A stretch of 64,000 nt of DNA from Candidatus Omnitrophota bacterium (GCA_026387335.1 JAPLLX010000007.1:243-64242); one strand, 5' to 3'; positions 53,877 through 61,571 are shown, numbered from the stretch's first letter. The notes: generated from the sequence alone by a model not told the origin. Numbers and translations: made by a program.

Positions 53877-53954
53877 CGGGGGATGGCTCAGTTTGGCTAG
53901 AGCGCTTGCTTTGGGAGCAAGAGGTCGAGAGTTCAAATCTCTCTCCCCCGACCA
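53877..53954 (+). tRNA. tRNA-Pro (anticodon UGG), CCA encoded
   Basis: Hand-folded cloverleaf: acceptor CGGGGGA/TCCCCCG, anticodon loop TTTGGGA with G37. Confidence 0.85.
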
Positions 53955-53979
53955 TATTTGACAATTTGAATAAAGAAAT

Positions 53980-54053
53980 GCGCCTGTAGCTCAAATGGAT
54001 AGAGCAATTGCCTTCTAAGCAATAGGTTGGCCGTTCGATTCGGCCCAGGCGCA
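53980..54053 (+). tRNA. tRNA-Arg (anticodon UCU)
   Basis: Hand-folded: acceptor GCGCCTG/CAGGCGC, anticodon loop CTTCTAA. Confidence 0.85.
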
Positions 54054-54066
54054 TAAAAATAAAGTT

Positions 54067-55242
54067 ATGAATAAGACTGAAAAAATCTTAGGACTAAGTA
54101 TCATAAGCCTAGCCATTATATTTGGGGCAATATATATATTCTTAAGCGTAGCCGGCAAGTCAATTATCGCTAAAACCCTTGAGTCCTTGACCCATAAGAA
54201 AACGACCGTAGGTTATTTTAACCTTAGCCCGACGCTGGATTTAGAAATCAAGAAGCTGGATATTGACGGCCTGGCTAAAATAGATTCAATTTATATTTCG
54301 CCCAACCTCTTAAGTCTTTTTAGCGGAAAAGTTATCGTTAACAGTTTTAAACTTGTTTCTCCGGAGTTTACTATTACTAAAGCTCCTCCCGCGGTAGTGA
54401 ATGAGCAAAAAACCAGCGTTGACCTTATTTCGGCGGCGCCGCCTACACCGCCTGAGTCTATCCAGCCTAAAGAATTAAAACTCCTGCCGTTTGGTTTTAA
54501 GCGTATCAGGATTGAAAACGGCATAGTTAATTACATTGATCAAAGTATAAGCGCCAACGGAATAAAAATAGTTTTAAAGGATATAAGTTGTAAAATATCC
54601 AACCTTTATTTTTTCCCGCGGCGCGGAATCACTAATTTTGAGTTAAAAGGGAAGATCCCCTGGAGAGAAGGACAGGTAAACGGCCAGTTGGATATTGAAG
54701 GATGGCTTAATTTCTTTAAGAAGGATATGCAGGCAGCTTTAAAGATCAAGGATATTGACGCTATTTATCTATATCCTTATTATTCTAATTGGGTAAATTT
54801 GGAAAAAGCGCGCATAGAAAGGGCCAAGCTCAATTTTTCAGTCGATATTAACGGTTTAAACAATAATATTATCGCGGAATGCCATTTGGCTCTGACCGAT
54901 ATGGTGCGCAAGCCGCTGGAAGCCGGAGAAGCCGAAGAAAAGGCGTCTAAGCTTACGAATAAAGTTTTAGATATGTTTAAAGCTGTTGATCAGGGCAAGG
55001 TGGAATTGAATTTTAGCGTAAAGACTAAAATGGATAATCCGCAATTTGGATTTGGTAATTTCAAAATGGCTTTTGAGGATAAGATTACCAAAGGTATGAG
55101 TTTGGGCTTTAAGCCGGAGAATGCTTTAGTTTTTCCGCTTAAGGTTATGGAAGGCGGAGTCAGAAGTTTCGCGGATTTGACCCGGGCGGCGATTGACGGG
55201 ATCTTTGCCATCGGTAACGGAGTTATCCAATCCGCTAAATAA
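54067..55242 (+). CDS. Hypothetical membrane-anchored periplasmic protein (AsmA/DUF748-like?)
   Basis: N-terminal TM and beta-rich repeats. Weak family assignment. Confidence 0.3.
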   Translation: MNKTEKILGLSIISLAIIFGAIYIFLSVAGKSIIAKTLESLTHKKTTVGYFNLSPTLDLEIKKLDIDGLAKIDSIYISPNLLSLFSGKVIVNSFKLVSPEFTITKAPPAVVNEQKTSVDLISAAPPTPPESIQPKELKLLPFGFKRIRIENGIVNYIDQSISANGIKIVLKDISCKISNLYFFPRRGITNFELKGKIPWREGQVNGQLDIEGWLNFFKKDMQAALKIKDIDAIYLYPYYSNWVNLEKARIERAKLNFSVDINGLNNNIIAECHLALTDMVRKPLEAGEAEEKASKLTNKVLDMFKAVDQGKVELNFSVKTKMDNPQFGFGNFKMAFEDKITKGMSLGFKPENALVFPLKVMEGGVRSFADLTRAAIDGIFAIGNGVIQSAK

Positions 55243-55304
55243 CGGGGCAATAATTTATTAGTAAGATTGCTCTATTTGTGTTAGGCTTTATTTGATAATT
55301 TAAT

Positions 55305-55381
55305 GGTGGCTATAGCTCAATTGGTTAGAGCGTTAGACTGTGGCTCTAAAGGTTGCGGGTTCGATCCCCGTTAGCCACCCA
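55305..55381 (+). tRNA. tRNA-His (anticodon GUG) with encoded G-1
   Basis: Hand-folded: G-1 + GTGGCTA/TAGCCAC + C73, anticodon loop CTGTGGC. Confidence 0.85.
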
Positions 55382-55550: not shown

Positions 55551-57362
55551 ATGCTTAGATTGGGAAAACAGGTAGACCTCAAGATAATCATTACAATTGC
55601 CTCCATTTTAATTATAACTTTCTTTTCTTTTTATCCCTGCCTTAAAAATAATTTTACGAACTGGGACGACAATTCATATGTAACAAACAATACAAGCGTG
55701 CGTAATTTATCAACAGGCAATATAAGACGTATTTTTTCCTCTTTTTCTGTGGGCAATTATCAGCCCGCGGTTATCTTGTCCTATTTATTTGAATACCGCT
55801 TCTTTAAGTTGAAACCATTCGGGTATCATTTAACTAACCTTATACTGCACTTACTTAATTGTCTATTTGTGTTTTGGCTGTTTTATCTGCTTACCCGCAA
55901 GATCTCGGTTTCTTGGCTAACAGCCGTCCTCTTTGGCCTACACCCTTTACATGTGGAATCAGTCGCCTGGATCAGTGAGAGAAAAGACGTGCTTTACGCG
56001 TGTTTCTTCTTAGCTGCGCTTATTTGCTATTGTTATTACCTGCGGAAGGAAAAAATAGGAAAATATTATTATTCTTCTTTAATTTTATTTATTTTCTCTC
56101 TTCTATCAAAAGCAATGGCCATCACTTTGCCCGCCGTGCTGTTGCTTATAGATTATTTTTTGCATAGAAAGCGCAGTAAAACCGCGCTCCTGGATAAAAT
56201 TCCCTTCTTTATTCTCTCTTTTATATTCGGGATAATCGCTGCTATCGGCCAATACTCAAGCGGAGCCGTAAGGCAAGAGAGTTTACTTAATTTTGTGAAT
56301 AAAATCGCGGTTTCTAGCTACGGCATAATTTTTTATCTTAATAAAATATTAGTCCCGATCAAGCTTTCTTGTTTTTATCCTTATGCGGGAACAAAAGAAA
56401 TTTCCTTATTTCCCTATACTTTTATCACAGTTGTTATCCTGTTGGCCGCTGTAATTATTTCAAGTAAGCGCACAAGGAAAATTATTTTTGGCAGTTTTTT
56501 ATTTTTAATTACTATTTTACCCGTTTTACAATTTATACCAATAGGCAATATCATCGTTGCCGATCGTTATATTTATATCTCATCGTTAGGAATATTTTAT
56601 CTTATTTCCGAGGGGTTTATCTGGTTATGCGCTTTGAAAACAAAACACCTTTATTTTTTACAAAGTTTGATGATGTTGATAATTTTAACCGGCGCGCTAG
56701 GCATTTTGGCCACATTAACCTGGAAAAGATGCCAGGTCTGGAATAATAGTATAGTTTTGTGGAGTGATGTTTTGAAGAATTATCCTAATGAAGCGACTGC
56801 TTACAAAAACCGGGGAGTGGCCTACCGGGATCAAGGTAACTTTACGCAGGCCATCTCTGATTATAATCGGGCGATAGAACTTAATCCTAATGATGCCGAT
56901 CCTTACAACAACCGCGGAGTGGTCTACCGGGACCAGGGTAACTTTACGCAGGCAATCTCTGATTATAATAGGGCGATAGAACTTAAACCTAACTATGCCG
57001 ATGCTTACTACAACCGTGCCCTTGCTTATCAAGCCCAGGGTAGCCCCGCCCAGGCTATTTCTAATTTCAGTAAGGCCATTAAAATTGATTCCCATCTTGT
57101 TAAAGCTTACAACAACCGCGCGACAGCCTATGTTCAAGAAAAAAATTATGAACTGGCTTTATCCGATCTTAATAAGGCTATTGAAATTACCCCTAATGAT
57201 GGAGAGGTATTTTACAACCGGGCGGTAGTGCGTTTTTTAATGAAAGAATATGATAAGGCCTGGATGGATATTCATCGAGCAGAAGAATTGGGAGAAAAAG
57301 TAGACCCTAAGCTTATTGAATTGCTCCGGAAAGCCTCTAAAAACAAGGAATTGCCTCTCTAA
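55551..57362 (+). CDS. Polytopic membrane protein with C-terminal TPR repeats (DUF1736/PMT-like N-terminal domain?)
   Basis: ~10 TM helices then 6 or more TPRs (AYKNRGVAYRDQGNFTQAISDYNRAIELNP...). Confidence 0.6.
   Translation: MLRLGKQVDLKIIITIASILIITFFSFYPCLKNNFTNWDDNSYVTNNTSVRNLSTGNIRRIFSSFSVGNYQPAVILSYLFEYRFFKLKPFGYHLTNLILHLLNCLFVFWLFYLLTRKISVSWLTAVLFGLHPLHVESVAWISERKDVLYACFFLAALICYCYYLRKEKIGKYYYSSLILFIFSLLSKAMAITLPAVLLLIDYFLHRKRSKTALLDKIPFFILSFIFGIIAAIGQYSSGAVRQESLLNFVNKIAVSSYGIIFYLNKILVPIKLSCFYPYAGTKEISLFPYTFITVVILLAAVIISSKRTRKIIFGSFLFLITILPVLQFIPIGNIIVADRYIYISSLGIFYLISEGFIWLCALKTKHLYFLQSLMMLIILTGALGILATLTWKRCQVWNNSIVLWSDVLKNYPNEATAYKNRGVAYRDQGNFTQAISDYNRAIELNPNDADPYNNRGVVYRDQGNFTQAISDYNRAIELKPNYADAYYNRALAYQAQGSPAQAISNFSKAIKIDSHLVKAYNNRATAYVQEKNYELALSDLNKAIEITPNDGEVFYNRAVVRFLMKEYDKAWMDIHRAEELGEKVDPKLIELLRKASKNKELPL
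56791..56994 (+). repeat. Near-identical tandem 102-bp duplication encoding two TPR units
   Basis: Direct comparison of 56791..56892 with 56893..56994. Confidence 0.6.
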
Positions 57363-57443
57363 ACCCAGAATATTCTTGATATGAGGTATTGCGCATATAA
57401 TTAGGTTAATAAATTGAGAGAGACCCCAAAATTTTTTTAGATT

Positions 57444-57689
57444 ATGCCTTGGTCACTTTACATAGTTAAATGCCAAGATACATCCCTTTACACCGGCATC
57501 ACAACCGATATCCCCCGTCGGCTCAAAGAGCATAATGCCAAGAAGGGCGCGTTTTATACCAAGAATAAGATTCCGGTTGAGCTTGTGTACCAAGAGCCAA
57601 TGCGGAATCGCTCCGAAGCCCTTAAACGCGAATCCGCCATTAAGAAGCTGACAAGGAAACAAAAGCTGCAATTGTTACCCACTAAATAA
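57444..57689 (+). CDS. Small GIY-YIG nuclease-family protein (UPF0213/YhbQ-like)
   Basis: LYIVKCQDTSLYTGITTDIPRRLKEHN motif. Confidence 0.75.
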   Translation: MPWSLYIVKCQDTSLYTGITTDIPRRLKEHNAKKGAFYTKNKIPVELVYQEPMRNRSEALKRESAIKKLTRKQKLQLLPTK

Positions 57690-57738
57690 AATTCTGCGTT
57701 AGATTTTGCCACCTCCTCCGTCTATTTAAGTAGGGTAT

Positions 57739-58026
57739 ATGACTAATGCAATTTCGGTTGAAGTTATAGCTACAAAGATCTTAGAGATAAGAGGTAAAAA
57801 GGTTATGCTGGATAGCGATCTGGCTAAGCTTTATGGCGTAGAAACCAAAGTATTAATTCAGGCTGTAAGAAGAAATAAGGCGCGCTTCCCGCTCGACTTC
57901 ATGTATATACTCACAAGACAAGAGGTTATGAACTTGAGGTCACAAATTGTGACCTCAAGTTGGAGCGGGAGAAGAATTGAGTTATCTTCTTCGTTGTCAA
58001 GCCTACCCAAAAGTGCTATAATTTAA
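57739..58026 (+). CDS. ORF6N (KilA-N-like) domain protein, C-terminally truncated/degenerate
   Basis: IRGKKVMLDSDLAKLYGVETKVLIQAVRRNKARFPLDFMY...RSQIVTSSWSGRR. Family C-terminal region absent. Confidence 0.6.
   Translation: MTNAISVEVIATKILEIRGKKVMLDSDLAKLYGVETKVLIQAVRRNKARFPLDFMYILTRQEVMNLRSQIVTSSWSGRRIELSSSLSSLPKSAII
57995..58022 (+). promoter_or_regulatory. Strong promoter TTGTCA-N16-TGcTATAAT (extended -10) at the 3' end of the ORF6N gene
   Basis: Direct reading. Confidence 0.5.
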
Positions 58027-58042
58027 CAACTTAGGAGAAAAT

Positions 58043-58081
58043 ATGTCTTTAGCTGAGTTTGCGATCACCTTATATTTATAA
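58043..58081 (+). CDS. Candidate 12-codon leader peptide uORF (MSLAEFAITLYL) with strong SD
   Basis: aggagaaaatATG. Stop TAA 10 nt upstream of a terminator hairpin. Confidence 0.25.
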   Translation: MSLAEFAITLYL

Positions 58082-58090
58082 CTATATTTA

Positions 58091-58117
58091 ACCCAGCCAC
58101 GTAGACTGGGTTTTTTT
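58091..58117 (+). terminator. Hairpin ACCCAG-ccacgtaga-CTGGGT + T7 between the uORF and the MazG-like gene (attenuator candidate)
   Basis: Direct reading. Confidence 0.45.
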
Positions 58118-58142
58118 GTTTCACTTTAGAAAAGGAGTTTTG

Positions 58143-58490
58143 ATGAACGAAATGAAAGAAATTACTGAAAAAATCAAGAAATTTAGAGATGAGCGTGACT
58201 GGATGCAATTTCATGATCCTAAGAATATGGCTGTTTCAATAATACTCGAAGCTTCTGAGCTGCTTGAGCATTTTCAATGGAAAACTACCGAAGAAGTAGA
58301 AAGATATTCAAGGAAAAATCTCGCTGAGATTAAGGATGAAATTGCAGACATAGCCTTATATCTTTTTGAATTAGCCGATAATCTCGGTATCAATTTAATT
58401 GATGCGATGGATCAAAAACTTAAAAAAAATGAAATGAAATATCCGGTGGAAAAAGCTAAAGGAAAGCATACAAAATACAATAAGCTATGA
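58143..58490 (+). CDS. MazG-like nucleoside triphosphate pyrophosphohydrolase (small all-alpha NTP-PPase)
   Basis: ERDWMQFHDPKNMAVSIILEASELLEHFQW...EIADIALYLFELAD. SD aaaggag. ATGA overlap with next gene. Listed TTG start 58116 lies in the T-tract. Confidence 0.7.
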   Translation: MNEMKEITEKIKKFRDERDWMQFHDPKNMAVSIILEASELLEHFQWKTTEEVERYSRKNLAEIKDEIADIALYLFELADNLGINLIDAMDQKLKKNEMKYPVEKAKGKHTKYNKL

Positions 58491-60865
58491 GACTCTATGA
58501 GGGGTCAATCAAGGAATTTTCGGAAGACGTAATACATAATCGTATCGCAGATATATTAAAAGATAACTTTCTCGCCTACTATAGAAGACCACCCTCAGAA
58601 CCAGAATATCGTTCCTGGCAGCAGTCACTAAATTTCCTAAATAACGCATTCACGTATTCAGATTTATTGAATAATAAAATAATAGTGGAGTATGAATTAC
58701 CATATTCAACTCGGCGCATCGATGTGTTGGTGTTTGGGAAGAATAATTCAAATAAGGATAGTGTTGTTTTAATGGAGTTAAAGCAATGGTCTAATGAACA
58801 TGTCTATGATTGTGAAAATGAAGGTAATGTAATAATAGATTTTCTTGGTAAGAGAGAGGTAGCTCATCCTTGTTTACAAGTTGAAGGATATCATTTTGAT
58901 TTATTAGATTTTCTGTTGATTTTTAATAGTGATGACGCAGTGCAGCTAAATTCTTGCACATATTGTCACAATTATACTAAGCAAAAAGAAAACATACTCT
59001 CGCTCCCCAAATTCCATAAATTCACCAAGGCTTTTCCTCTGTTTCTCAAAGAAGATGTCAGAGAATTGGGCCTTTATTTGCAGGAGAGATTAAAGAATAG
59101 TGACGGGCTAGAAGTCTTTAGTCGTTTTTTAAATAGCCCTGTTCGACCTTCGAAAAGATTACTAGATCACACTGGCGATATGATTCATAAGCAGCAAATA
59201 TTTACGCTTATTGATGATCAAATCGCTGCTTATAATGCGATTATTAGCAAAGCTAAGCAGTTAACTAAGACAAGTACAAAGTCTATTATTGTTGTAAAGG
59301 GTGGTCCTGGAACAGGCAAGTCAGTAATTGCATTAGAAGTTATGGGCGAGCTGATGCGTCAGGGTAAGGTTGTATATCATGCTACCGGTTCATCCGCATT
59401 TACAAATACATTGAGAAAAATTGTTGGACGTAGAGCATCAAATCTCTTCAAATTCTTTTTTAACTTTACGCAGCACAAGGAGAACGAAATCGATGTTCTG
59501 ATATGCGATGAGGCCCATAGGATTAGGTCGGATAGCAATGATTATGGGGTGCCTTCTAAATTTAAATCAAAAAACCCTCAAATAGATGATCTTATAAGGC
59601 CCGCAAAGTTATCGATATTTTTTATAGATGAATTCCAGATTGTCCGTCCAAAGGAGATTGGTAGTGCTGAATTAATAAAAAGTTCAGCCGCTAAATTTGG
59701 CGTAAATGATAAAGACATTGTAGAATTCGAACTTAGGACGCAGTTCCGTTGTTCCGGGTCAGATGCATATTTACAGTGGTTAGACAAGCTACTGGAGATT
59801 AGAGAGTCTGATATAGATATTTTTGATGCAAAAATGGAGTTTAGAATTTTTGAAACTCCAGTAGATTTAAAAAGAGCAATTGATGAGAAAAATAGACACA
59901 AGGAGAATTTAGCTAGAATTGTTGCTGGTTTCTGTTGGAAATGGAGTGAACCGAATCCAGACGGTTCATTAGTAAAAGATGTTCAAATAGGTGACTTTCA
60001 AATGCCCTGGGAGAAGAAGGATGAATTTTGGAAGTGGGCTACTGATAAGAGTGGTATGGAGCAGGTTGGGACAGTCTATACAGCTCAAGGTTTTGAATTT
60101 GACTATATAGGTGTAATCTTTGGAGACGACCTCGTTTGGCGCAAAGATAAAGGTTGGATTAGTATTCCTGAGAATTCTTTTGATAAACAGGTTTTAAGAG
60201 GGAATCAAAAGCTAACTGATCATCTTAAACATGTTTATAGAGTGTTGATGTCGCGCGCTCATAAGGGAGTTTATTTGTATTTCATGGACAAAGAAACAGA
60301 AATGTTTTTTAGGACTAAGATTGAAAGCAGGGATGGCGCTTTGATGTTTTCTGATATTGTTAAAGAGGATGAAAAGCAGTCTAAAGAGCCAGTGCCGACG
60401 ATCCCGGAAAATCTGCAGTTTAGAGATTATCTCCCTATTTTATCACTTGAAGCGGTTGCAACGTCATTCGGTAAAGAAACACAGGTTGAACAAGAACCGA
60501 TTGGTTGGATCAAGGCCGATATCCCTAGAACTTTGAATAAAGACATGTTTGTTGCGAAAGTGGTAGGTAAGTCAATGGAACCGACTATTCCTGATGGAAG
60601 CTATTGCGTATTTCGCTTTGACAAAGGAGGGACCAGGAATGGATTAGCTGTCCTTGTGGAGTGTCATTTAATTTCTGACCCTGAAACGACGAGGCAGTTT
60701 ACAATAAAGCGGTATAAAAGCGAGAAAGAATATTTTGACGATGGGACATGGAGACATAAGAAAATAATTCTTTCTCCTGATAATAATGATTTTAAAGATA
60801 TCGTTTTGGAAGATGTGCCCGCTATCGAATTTCGAGTTGTAGCGGAGTTTATGTGTGTTTTATAA
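58487..60865 (+). CDS. Multidomain defense-like protein: PD-(D/E)xK nuclease motif + DUF2075/Schlafen-Nhi-like DEAH ATPase + C-terminal LexA/S24-type Ser-Lys peptidase domain
   Basis: E68/D79/E97-x-K99 (VEYE...RIDVLVF...VVLMELKQW). Walker A GGPGTGKS (aa 272-279) and Walker B VLICDEAHRI. C-terminal VGKSMEPTIPDGSYCVF...FTIKRY preceded by LEAVATSFG. Confidence 0.7.
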   Translation: MRLYEGSIKEFSEDVIHNRIADILKDNFLAYYRRPPSEPEYRSWQQSLNFLNNAFTYSDLLNNKIIVEYELPYSTRRIDVLVFGKNNSNKDSVVLMELKQWSNEHVYDCENEGNVIIDFLGKREVAHPCLQVEGYHFDLLDFLLIFNSDDAVQLNSCTYCHNYTKQKENILSLPKFHKFTKAFPLFLKEDVRELGLYLQERLKNSDGLEVFSRFLNSPVRPSKRLLDHTGDMIHKQQIFTLIDDQIAAYNAIISKAKQLTKTSTKSIIVVKGGPGTGKSVIALEVMGELMRQGKVVYHATGSSAFTNTLRKIVGRRASNLFKFFFNFTQHKENEIDVLICDEAHRIRSDSNDYGVPSKFKSKNPQIDDLIRPAKLSIFFIDEFQIVRPKEIGSAELIKSSAAKFGVNDKDIVEFELRTQFRCSGSDAYLQWLDKLLEIRESDIDIFDAKMEFRIFETPVDLKRAIDEKNRHKENLARIVAGFCWKWSEPNPDGSLVKDVQIGDFQMPWEKKDEFWKWATDKSGMEQVGTVYTAQGFEFDYIGVIFGDDLVWRKDKGWISIPENSFDKQVLRGNQKLTDHLKHVYRVLMSRAHKGVYLYFMDKETEMFFRTKIESRDGALMFSDIVKEDEKQSKEPVPTIPENLQFRDYLPILSLEAVATSFGKETQVEQEPIGWIKADIPRTLNKDMFVAKVVGKSMEPTIPDGSYCVFRFDKGGTRNGLAVLVECHLISDPETTRQFTIKRYKSEKEYFDDGTWRHKKIILSPDNNDFKDIVLEDVPAIEFRVVAEFMCVL

Positions 60866-60875
60866 TTTCTAAATA

Positions 60876-61571
60876 ATGTTTAAAGCCGGTGATGTAATTT
60901 CATACATTGAAATGTGCCAAGAAGAAGGTATAAGTCTTCAAAGAGGAATGAACTTTCGACTTAAAGGAAGACACAGTGTAATATTGATGAGTCTCAGACG
61001 CAATGCTCCATATGCTGATAAGGTTGAAGATAATGGCAAGACATTAATATACGAAGGTCATGATATCCCTCGGTTTAATAGAGCTCAAGATTCAAAGCTG
61101 GTTTCTCAACAAATGCAGAATCCCGGAGGTAGTTTAACTCAGAATGGGTTTTTTTATAAAGCAGCGCATGATTACAAAAATAAGAAGTCTGATGCAGAGC
61201 TAGTCAAGGTATATGAAAAAATTCATTCAGGAATATGGGCTTATAACGGTTTATTTAAACTAGTTGATTCGTGGCAAGAAGAATCGAATAAAAGAAAAGT
61301 ATTTAAATTCAGACTTGAAATAGATAAAATAAATTCTAAGGGCAAACAGCCAGAAAATTTTGATTTGGATCGTAACAGATTAATACCTGCATCTGTAAAG
61401 CTAGCGGTTTGGAAGAGGGATAAGGGGAAGTGTACTAAATGCGGCAGCCCTGATAATTTACATTTCGACCACATAATTCCTTATTCAAAAGGCGGGTCTT
61501 CTTTAGTTGCAGAAAACATTCAGTTGTTATGCGCAAGACATAATATTGAAAAGCGAGATAGGATTGAATAA
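60876..61571 (+). CDS. SRA/PUA-like N-terminal domain + C-terminal HNH endonuclease (type IV restriction-like architecture)
   Basis: HNH motif CTKCGSPDNLHFDHIIPYSKGGSSLVAENIQLLCARHN. N-terminus EEGISLQRGMNFRLKGRHSVILMS...KVEDNGKTLIYEGHD resembles the SRA/YDG core. Confidence 0.6.
   Translation: MFKAGDVISYIEMCQEEGISLQRGMNFRLKGRHSVILMSLRRNAPYADKVEDNGKTLIYEGHDIPRFNRAQDSKLVSQQMQNPGGSLTQNGFFYKAAHDYKNKKSDAELVKVYEKIHSGIWAYNGLFKLVDSWQEESNKRKVFKFRLEIDKINSKGKQPENFDLDRNRLIPASVKLAVWKRDKGKCTKCGSPDNLHFDHIIPYSKGGSSLVAENIQLLCARHNIEKRDRIE

Follow-up and report, generated by a model that had tools for sequence, protein, structure and literature searches.

The stretch of DNA analyzed here is a 64,000-nucleotide (nt) segment from a Candidatus Omnitrophota bacterium (GCA_026387335.1, JAPLLX010000007.1:243-64242; hereinafter, the window, with all positions counted from its first letter). 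It contains, at 58487-60865 on the plus strand, a gene for a 792-amino acid (aa) protein (hereinafter, the main protein) in which a nuclease core, a superfamily 1 (SF1) helicase, and a linker are followed by a C-terminal module of the LexA/UmuD-type S24 autopeptidase family. An initial annotation, made from the DNA sequence alone, had delineated this open reading frame (ORF) exactly, and every motif named there lies at its given place in the 792-aa protein. Profile matches and conservation place these motifs far outside what chance would produce. The ATG start codon overlaps the stop codon of an upstream MazG-like gene (ATGA); all protein-coding features of the window described below are on the same strand. 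The AlphaFold2 model of the full protein, obtained with 91 homologs, has a mean predicted local distance difference test score (pLDDT) of 81.7, with low confidence confined to the linker (aa 614-632), a loop at aa 661-668, and two other loops.

The C-terminal module (60422-60862, aa 646-792) matches the Pfam Peptidase_S24 profile (PF00717) over aa 679-783 with a score of 28.5 bits, just above the curated gathering cutoff of 23.3. Compared to the PDB as a single sequence, the C-terminal 152 aa retrieved nothing relevant, and a profile together with a structure model was needed instead. A profile built from 33 diverse module copies matched, among all PDB sequences, only LexA (14 distinct sequences, best E=0.0015) and UmuD. 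The profile alignment, which also covers the LexA strand ELLPENSEFKPIV, places the predicted nucleophile Ser696 (60572-60574), in the motif GKSMEP, on Ser119 in the GMSM motif of LexA, and the predicted general base Lys741 (60707-60709), in the motif FTIKRY, on LexA Lys156 in TVKR. The initial annotation had singled out the same two residues, the serine within the S24 box GKSMEPTIPDGSYCVF at aa 694-709 and the lysine, 45 residues past Ser696, within FTIKRYK at aa 738-744. The model of the S24 domain alone has a pLDDT of 91.8 and a predicted template modeling score (pTM) of 0.86. In a Foldseek comparison of this model to the PDB, the top 33 matches are all C-terminal domains of LexA or lambda CI, with template modeling scores (TM-scores) on the target of at most 0.70 and 143-155 columns aligned, the cleavage-site region among them; UmuD' and type I signal peptidases, which belong to the same clan, rank below these. 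Thus, by Pfam score, profile matches, and predicted fold, the C-terminal module is a member of peptidase family S24.

This assignment is the part of the initial annotation that drew the most independent lines of evidence, namely, the above-threshold Pfam score, the profile matches limited to LexA and UmuD, and the LexA/CI-like fold. As to the two kinds of contrary evidence anticipated there, a lack of any S24/LexA-like match and the absence of the dyad from homologs, Pfam, the profile, and the structure model all match S24, and Ser696 (115 sequences) and Lys741 (116 sequences) do not vary in any aligned sequence that contains the domain. Across 127 representatives of the module, obtained by clustering at 50% identity, the nucleophilic serine is retained in 125 and the lysine in 126. 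Compared to LexA, the module contains two insertions, of about 8 aa before and about 10 aa after the strand that carries the lysine, and a set of near-invariant residues that are not found in LexA (W674, R717, D731, Y743, S745, K747, W755, and H757). One of the pocket residues of LexA that receive F203 of RecA is F111 (bioRxiv 10.1101/2023.10.30.564768); in our profile mapping, this residue aligns with F688 of the module, which is near-invariant among the 127 representatives. No helix-turn-helix (HTH) family was matched by Pfam upstream of the S24 module in the main protein, where the helicase and nuclease motifs reside instead; because it has no DNA-binding domain, the main protein is not a repressor of the LexA/CI type.

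The cleavage-site region of the main protein, LPILSLEAVATSFG (60431-60472, aa 649-662), forms a strand and loop about 38 residues upstream of the catalytic serine. The consensus of the family in this region, LPVYSLxAAAGxFG, lines up with LexA LPLVGRVAAGEP (LPLVGRVAAG), and the position-for-position alignment with LexA predicts scission between A658 and T659 (60458-60463). The initial annotation had pointed to LEAVATSFG (aa 654-662) as a LexA-like site; it found the correct region but implied the wrong bond, F661-G662, which we rejected because Ala84-Gly85 of LexA aligns to A658-T659, F661 being a separate, near-invariant residue. Among the 127 representatives, the P1-P1' pair is A-G in 87, C-G in 20, A-T in 12, and A-S in 5, so that 107 (84% of the subtype) carry A-G or C-G. 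These two pairs are the scissile types of LexA/CI and UmuD. The main protein itself has a threonine in P1' (Ala658-Thr659), a feature shared with 12 of the 127 representatives. Residues 661-668, immediately past the site, have a pLDDT below 50, which is consistent with a mobile loop in the model. A single representative (P0149) lacks both the serine and the lysine, and this protein has also lost the site motif; the joint loss of all three suggests that they act as one functional unit. Judging from this pattern of conservation, the dyad and the site are under selection.

The helicase portion of the main protein (59204-60322, aa 240-612) includes the Walker A motif GGPGTGKS (59300-59323, aa 272-279) and the Walker B/DEAH motif VLICDEAHRI (59495-59524, aa 337-346), both at the positions where they had been annotated. 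With E=1.1e-83, aa 265-601 match the Pfam family SLFN-g3_helicase (PF09848, the former DUF2075), and the match spans the complete profile (positions 1-354 of 354). Neither GGPGTGKS nor DEAH varies among the aligned homologs. The best fold matches are SLFN11 (Foldseek E=4.6e-13), SLFN14, Dda, RecD2, Upf1, and Rep. The assignment of the middle part to the SF1 helicases of the DUF2075/Schlafen group-3 type, proposed initially, is thus very strong, given both the Pfam score and the SF1-like fold matches. The N-terminal part includes a core of the PD-(D/E)xK type (58598-58966, aa 38-160), with the candidate catalytic residues E68 (58688-58690), D79 (58721-58723), and E97-L-K99 (58775-58783) embedded in the annotated motifs VEYE (aa 67-70), RIDVLVF (aa 77-83), and VVLMELKQW (aa 93-101). 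E68, D79, E97, and K99 are invariant in 121 aligned sequences, and the order of the predicted secondary structure elements suits the alpha-beta-beta-beta-alpha-beta core of restriction endonuclease-like folds, with D79 opening strand 2 and ExK located on strand 3 of the model. Given the invariant motifs and the predicted topology, the N-terminal part is a probable nuclease of the PD-(D/E)xK type, as annotated initially. The helicase is joined to the S24 module by a flexible, variable linker of about 35 aa (60323-60421, aa 613-645), the most variable, gap-rich stretch of the alignment, in which aa 614-632 have a pLDDT below 50 and at which the homologs lacking S24 end.

More than 100 full-length homologs with 55-91% identity to the main protein, all with the pair of PF09848 and PF00717, come from Omnitrophota, Nitrospira, Syntrophaceae, and Elusimicrobiota; the closest ones (83-91% identity) are, to judge from their source names, from Candidatus Omnitrophota. 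Automatic annotation sometimes names both halves of these proteins, as in 'DUF2075 family protein/SOS-response transcriptional repressor LexA'. We also scanned for orthologous loci in one genome per species and analyzed the best 80. The S24 domain is present in 16 of these 80 loci, down to 33-35% identity, from Omnitrophota, Elusimicrobia, Bacillota, Verrucomicrobiae, Thermoanaerobaculia, Bacteroidaceae, and Binatia as well as metagenome-assembled genomes labeled Planctomycetales, Enterobacteriaceae, and Bordetella. In the other 64 loci, the same nuclease-helicase ends directly past the helicase, at about 612 aa, without S24; the lack of the module is evidently tolerated, and the core enzyme would appear to work without it. 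None of the 14 archaeal loci compared to 16 of the 66 bacterial ones carry the S24 form (one-sided Fisher p=0.03, with phylogeny ignored), and such restriction to bacteria fits a need for bacterial RecA.

In one Omnitrophota lineage (L004, 10376-12881; L005, 3210-5715), the S24-bearing gene overlaps, stop codon to start codon, with a second DUF2075 paralog that encodes a 661-aa protein without S24 and is followed by a Macro-domain gene; the same S24-bearing protein is preceded by a MazG-like gene in L005 and is not in L004. The module is almost missing from cultured material, and neither phages nor plasmids provided an annotated example. No matches were found in 50,697 genomes of cultured phages, and the single match among 72,556 plasmids is a replicon of Halomonas sp. 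PA16-9 (L095; NZ_CP040452.1, 3971-6441), which is also the only match on a replicon of a cultured organism. In this replicon, an ORF of 686 aa for the nuclease-helicase and one of 159 aa for the S24 module run in different frames, with an overlap at the linker, and the S24 ORF has an A-G site with the serine and lysine intact. This is either a frameshift (or a sequencing error) or a naturally split version of the protein, and the replicon is a possible experimental handle.

The gene immediately upstream of the main gene, at 58143-58490, encodes a 115-aa MazG-like protein resembling dCTP pyrophosphatase 1. Although the mechanically predicted ORF opens at a TTG at 58116, the ATG at 58143 is the likely start, given the AAGGAG Shine-Dalgarno sequence upstream of it and the length of 115 aa, as in the homologs. 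The protein matches the Pfam family MazG-like (PF12643) with 72 bits and, among the PDB sequences, an archaeal-type pyrophosphatase (4qgp, E=5e-25) and dCTP pyrophosphatase 1/RS21-C6 (E=1.4e-18). Regardless of the presence of S24, a MazG-like gene is the immediate upstream neighbor, on the same strand, in 44 of the 80 orthologous loci, and in about 58 such a gene is present no more than 4 kb away; likewise, it was found upstream in four of the five homologs that were looked up (P0004, P0059, where this holds for one of two places, P0072, and P0100). Whether or not S24 is present, the MazG-like gene and the nuclease-helicase gene are a conserved two-gene unit in bacteria and archaea. PADLOC includes no model for the MazG-like partner, and nothing was found in the open-access literature on MazG together with DUF2075, so this unit may be an undescribed two-gene defense system; the pairing is a second lead provided by this locus.

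The S24 module is not confined to the nuclease-helicase. A search with the C-terminal 155 aa alone against 1.84 billion representative proteins yielded 1475 clusters with E<=1e-3, of which 807 have E<=1e-10; because a single-sequence search of this kind cannot reach LexA itself, the matches comprise an S24 subtype of their own. Among the 150 best matches, the module is located at or near the C-terminus of proteins that range from 106 to 1878 aa, and all 77 representatives of at least 280 aa match PF00717 (best E=4.6e-16). The most common partner families in these 77 proteins are ResIII (15), DUF2075 (12), Type_ISP_C (12), DEAD (6), Eco57I (6), MZB (5), N6_Mtase (4), RE_endonuc (3), SWI2_SNF2 (3), GIY-YIG (3), nSTAND_NTPase5 (3), AlwI (2), MmeI (2), Methylase_S (2), HNH (2), TnsA-like (2), and Mrr (1). 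There is no HTH domain among the 25 most common partner families, and given that LexA is out of reach of the single-sequence search as well, we rejected the possibility that the 1475 relatives are ordinary HTH-S24 repressors. PADLOC labels the carriers as type IIG restriction endonuclease-methyltransferases (at least 10), type I restriction endonuclease-methyltransferases (6), and DruE of Druantia (5, one of these with 459 bits), and further as PDC-S41, AbiO, Nhi, DrmMI of DISARM, and type III and type II restriction endonucleases. Altogether, the module is attached to more than 10 unrelated enzyme architectures, many of which are restriction enzymes that discriminate self from non-self and are, as a rule, constitutively active. 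On viral contigs (IMG/VR), the proteins that end in the module are a Res protein resembling type III, one that combines GIY-YIG with DUF2075, and a type I HsdR; one carrier is a type I HsdR-S24 fusion (L093).

The module moves between enzymes as a cassette because its identity is decoupled from that of the core. A type I R-like protein carries, at its C-terminus, the closest relative of the module of the main protein (71% identity). One homolog (P0117) shares 53% identity with the main protein in the core and 72% in the S24 module, and homologs of the C-G type average 72% identity over the core and 46% over S24. We further observed that, in a 239-aa protein that is probably a fragment (P0125), the S24 module follows remnants of HhH-GPD and EndoIII iron-sulfur domains, so that the cassette may also have become attached to a DNA glycosylase, an enzyme of the repair rather than the restriction type. 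In three type IIG/ISP-like proteins (P0204, P0173, and P0170), S24 is not terminal but is followed by a further 180-200 aa or so without a Pfam match.

The main gene lies in a region of the window with a distinct nucleotide composition, with a G+C content of 35-38% across 57-61 kb vs 41-47% in most of the window. Genes for tRNA-Pro, tRNA-Arg, and tRNA-His occupy 53877-55380, about 2 kb before the low-G+C stretch (57000-61000), an arrangement consistent with a small acquired islet. Apart from the main gene, the islet contains the MazG-like gene and three other genes. The first of these encodes a stand-alone small GIY-YIG protein (57444-57689, 81 aa) and is syntenic in one of the homologous loci (L002); the next one encodes an ORF6N-domain protein (57739-58026, 95 aa) that matches the PADLOC candidate PDC-S05 with 97 bits, and ORF6N genes also flank the homolog of the main gene in another locus (L009). 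The last of the three genes begins 10 nt past the main gene (60876-61571, 231 aa) and encodes an SRA(SAD)+HNH protein, with a SAD_SRA score of 29.6 bits, slightly under the Pfam cutoff of 30.7; this is the architecture of a modified cytosine-dependent type IV restriction enzyme. We considered this gene as a functional partner of the main gene and rejected it because it is missing from all the homologous loci examined, its place beside the homologs being taken by a YgjP-like gene or by others. A promoter-like site upstream of the MazG-like gene (57994-58022; TTGTCA, a 17-nt spacer, and TATAAT, with TG before the second hexamer; 11 of 12 matches) is only suggestive because the regional count of such sites is not above chance. 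No terminator-like sites were detected between 58.0 and 61.7 kb, and a motif scan found neither recA nor lexA in the window.

Several known systems resemble the main protein in part. Nhi of Staphylococcus epidermidis (SERP2475), the 'Nhi-like' proteins (Millman et al. 2022), and lactococcal AbiO are single-protein systems of anti-phage immunity that likewise combine, in one chain, an N-terminal PD-(D/E)xK-type nuclease with a DUF2075 (PF09848) SF1 helicase, and the locus of the main protein is, as for these systems, a setting that resembles a defense island. The link to Nhi and to the Schlafen helicases that was drawn initially is supported by the PADLOC models of Nhi (45.4 bits) and AbiO (47.7 bits) and by the top fold matches, SLFN11 and SLFN14. 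However, the similarity to Nhi and AbiO is weak, covers only aa 155-470, leaving the nuclease core outside the match, and does not establish family membership; the PDC-S41 model scores 60 bits. The C-terminal domain is of a metalloenzyme type in Nhi (Nhi preprint) but an S24 autopeptidase in the main protein, and the conserved MazG-like operon partner is a feature of the family of the main protein that is not reported for Nhi. The human group-3 Schlafens (SLFN11, SLFN14, and SLFN5) belong to the same helicase family, PF09848, and include the best Foldseek matches, but have an N-terminal tRNA-cleaving Slfn domain and no S24, whereas the main protein combines a PD-(D/E)xK-type motif with S24. 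LexA, UmuD, and lambda CI (MEROPS family S24) share with the subtype the fold, the positions of the Ser-Lys dyad, the strand and loop of the cleavage site, and the A-G/C-G pairs. Unlike LexA and CI, which contain an HTH, the module is appended to the C-termini of enzymes, without an HTH and with the two insertions and the additional invariant residues; furthermore, P1' is glycine in LexA and threonine in the main protein. In the open-access literature, including papers on the diversity of BREX and on bacterial Schlafens, we did not find fusions of S24 to DUF2075, restriction, or defense enzymes described, and a 2025 review on restriction-modification (PMC12707154) never mentions S24, LexA, or peptidases. 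Thus, in agreement with the initial annotation, which did not recognize the architecture among described defense systems, the fusion of S24 to defense and restriction enzymes, and with it a possible way of switching them, is apparently undescribed.

The interpretation that we tentatively favor, at somewhat short of an even chance, is that the main protein is a single-chain, Nhi-like defense enzyme, co-transcribed with the MazG-like gene, in which self-cleavage by the S24 module would serve as a damage-triggered shut-off. By analogy with LexA, UmuD, and lambda CI, the module would cut its own chain at A658|T659, with the cut stimulated by filaments of RecA on single-stranded DNA (RecA*), and cleavage would turn the enzyme off when the host DNA is damaged or undergoes recombinational repair. 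The enzyme could be inactivated through the removal of the S24 module as a dimerization unit, and/or the new C-terminus (...EAVA; ...AAA in most relatives) might act in the manner of the latent ClpX signal of LexA, leading to degradation of the nuclease-helicase fragment. The exact ClpX signal of LexA(1-84) is -VAA. Cleavage of LexA uncovers latent ClpX signals, and both fragments are then degraded, according to one report (PMC10584840). The outcome would be a built-in, cis-acting restriction alleviation that shields the chromosome from the cell's own DNA-degrading enzyme. In the classical case of restriction alleviation, ClpXP proteolyses HsdR of EcoKI (PMC4231737; PMC12707154) once DNA has been damaged or unmodified sites have appeared, removing it when the chromosome is at risk, as described in a further source (PMC11109961). 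The proposed logic, proteolytic removal of a motor-nuclease, is the same, but the likeness is functional and hypothetical rather than one of homology: degradation of EcoKI takes place in trans, through ClpXP attacking complexes engaged in translocation, with no degron identified (PMC4231737), whereas the first cut in the main protein is proposed to occur in cis. HsdR itself is among the carriers of the S24 cassette, as noted above.

We prefer shut-off to activation because S24 is missing from the enzyme in 80% of the orthologous loci and because the carriers of the cassette include constitutively active restriction enzymes that need no trigger; given that the cassette is exchanged among unrelated enzymes, an enzyme-agnostic route would be expected. 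The conservation of F688, the equivalent of LexA F111, and the absence of the domain from archaea are compatible with the link to RecA*. Several considerations weigh against this interpretation. Self-cleavage, its dependence on RecA*, and the direction of the switch are all points that we infer. Conservation of the -AA tail does not by itself indicate a degron because the S24 active site requires this sequence too, and the contrast between archaea and bacteria is weak. The two insertions and the extra near-invariant residues of the module could form a binding surface for another partner. Some carriers look like methyltransferase or specificity proteins (DrmMI, Specificity_II, and Methylase_S), to which the logic of chromosome protection fits less well. 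Finally, LexA requires a glycine at P1', and the LexA mutant G85D, known to be uncleavable (PDB entry 1jhf, itself among the fold matches of the module), suggests by analogy that cleavage in the A-T subtype may be slow, altered, or absent.

The opposite direction of the switch, which was the initial proposal and which we consider rather unlikely, implies that S24 would keep the enzyme latent until RecA* formed on phage replication or recombination intermediates or on damaged DNA induced self-cleavage and freed the active enzyme, an immunity of the zymogen type triggered by infection. The structural evidence of an intact self-cleaving module applies to this scheme equally, the flexible linker would let S24 fold back onto the enzyme, and a trigger would be useful for enzymes of the Nhi type, which act on replicating phage DNA without methylation-based discrimination of self from non-self (Nhi preprint). 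However, the 64 loci in which the core evidently is tolerated without S24 indicate that no safety catch is needed, specific autoinhibitory contacts seem unlikely for a cassette present on more than 10 kinds of enzymes, among them restriction enzymes of types I, IIG, III, and ISP for which no activation is necessary, and the cut enzyme would be otherwise unchanged, retaining a tail of about 45 aa. A role independent of RecA*, either as a dimerization device or scaffold that pairs two nuclease-motors or through cleavage triggered by something else, for example a phage protein or a ligand that binds to the additional conserved surface, is in our assessment unlikely. In favor of such a role, the insertions and the eight or so near-invariant residues not found in LexA suggest an additional interaction, and the C-terminal domains of LexA and UmuD dimerize. 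Many of the carrier enzymes (types I, III, ISP, and IIG) need two cooperating molecules for double-strand cleavage, which also suits pairing, and RecA-independent autocleavage by an S24 protein exists, as reported for IrvR (PMC7101444). Yet pure dimerization would leave unexplained the near-universal dyad and A-G/C-G site that are lost together, whereas RecA* independence is at odds with the lack of S24 forms at the 14 archaeal loci and with the conservation of the residue that, in LexA, belongs to the pocket for RecA F203.

The remaining alternative applies to the A-T form of the module in the main protein, which might be a non-cleaving relic, with the replacement of glycine by threonine at P1' blocking proteolysis and the module persisting solely as a structural or binding appendage. 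In favor of this scenario are the Ala658-Thr659 pair itself, the precedent of LexA G85D, and the presence of A-T or A-S in only 17 of the 127 representatives. However, the subtype with threonine or serine at P1' retains the catalytic serine and lysine along with every other core motif, and its consensus is nearly identical to that of the glycine subtype; a single position, 725, co-varies with P1', being glutamate with threonine or serine and glutamine with glycine. This pattern looks like adaptation rather than decay; the truly degenerate P0149 has lost the serine, the lysine, and the site together. Moreover, the A-T subtype is spread over several classes of enzymes, with L090 (ResIII) and P0121 (type I R-like) as examples. 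Thus, we regard the relic scenario as very unlikely. For the family as a whole, it seems quite possible, even if short of probable, that this S24 subtype has spread as a plug-in cassette that wires restriction and defense enzymes to RecA* and the SOS response, switching immunity either off or on.

Protection of the host from its own defense nucleases is a central open problem in the biology of bacterial immunity, and the sole well-studied post-translational solution for restriction enzymes is the ClpXP-dependent alleviation of type I systems, for which the recognition signal is still unidentified (PMC4231737). The main protein appears to be one instance of a much broader phenomenon of S24 fusion. 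If the proposed mechanism is correct, immunity would be switched within minutes of DNA damage, without a transcriptional step, by a simple, portable, and testable device fused directly to the enzymes, which, as a modular switch or degron of natural origin that responds to damage, could also be of use in engineering. The SOS response would then be tied directly to restriction and anti-phage defense, and the paradigm of LexA, UmuD, and CI would reach beyond repressors and polymerase subunits to immune effectors.

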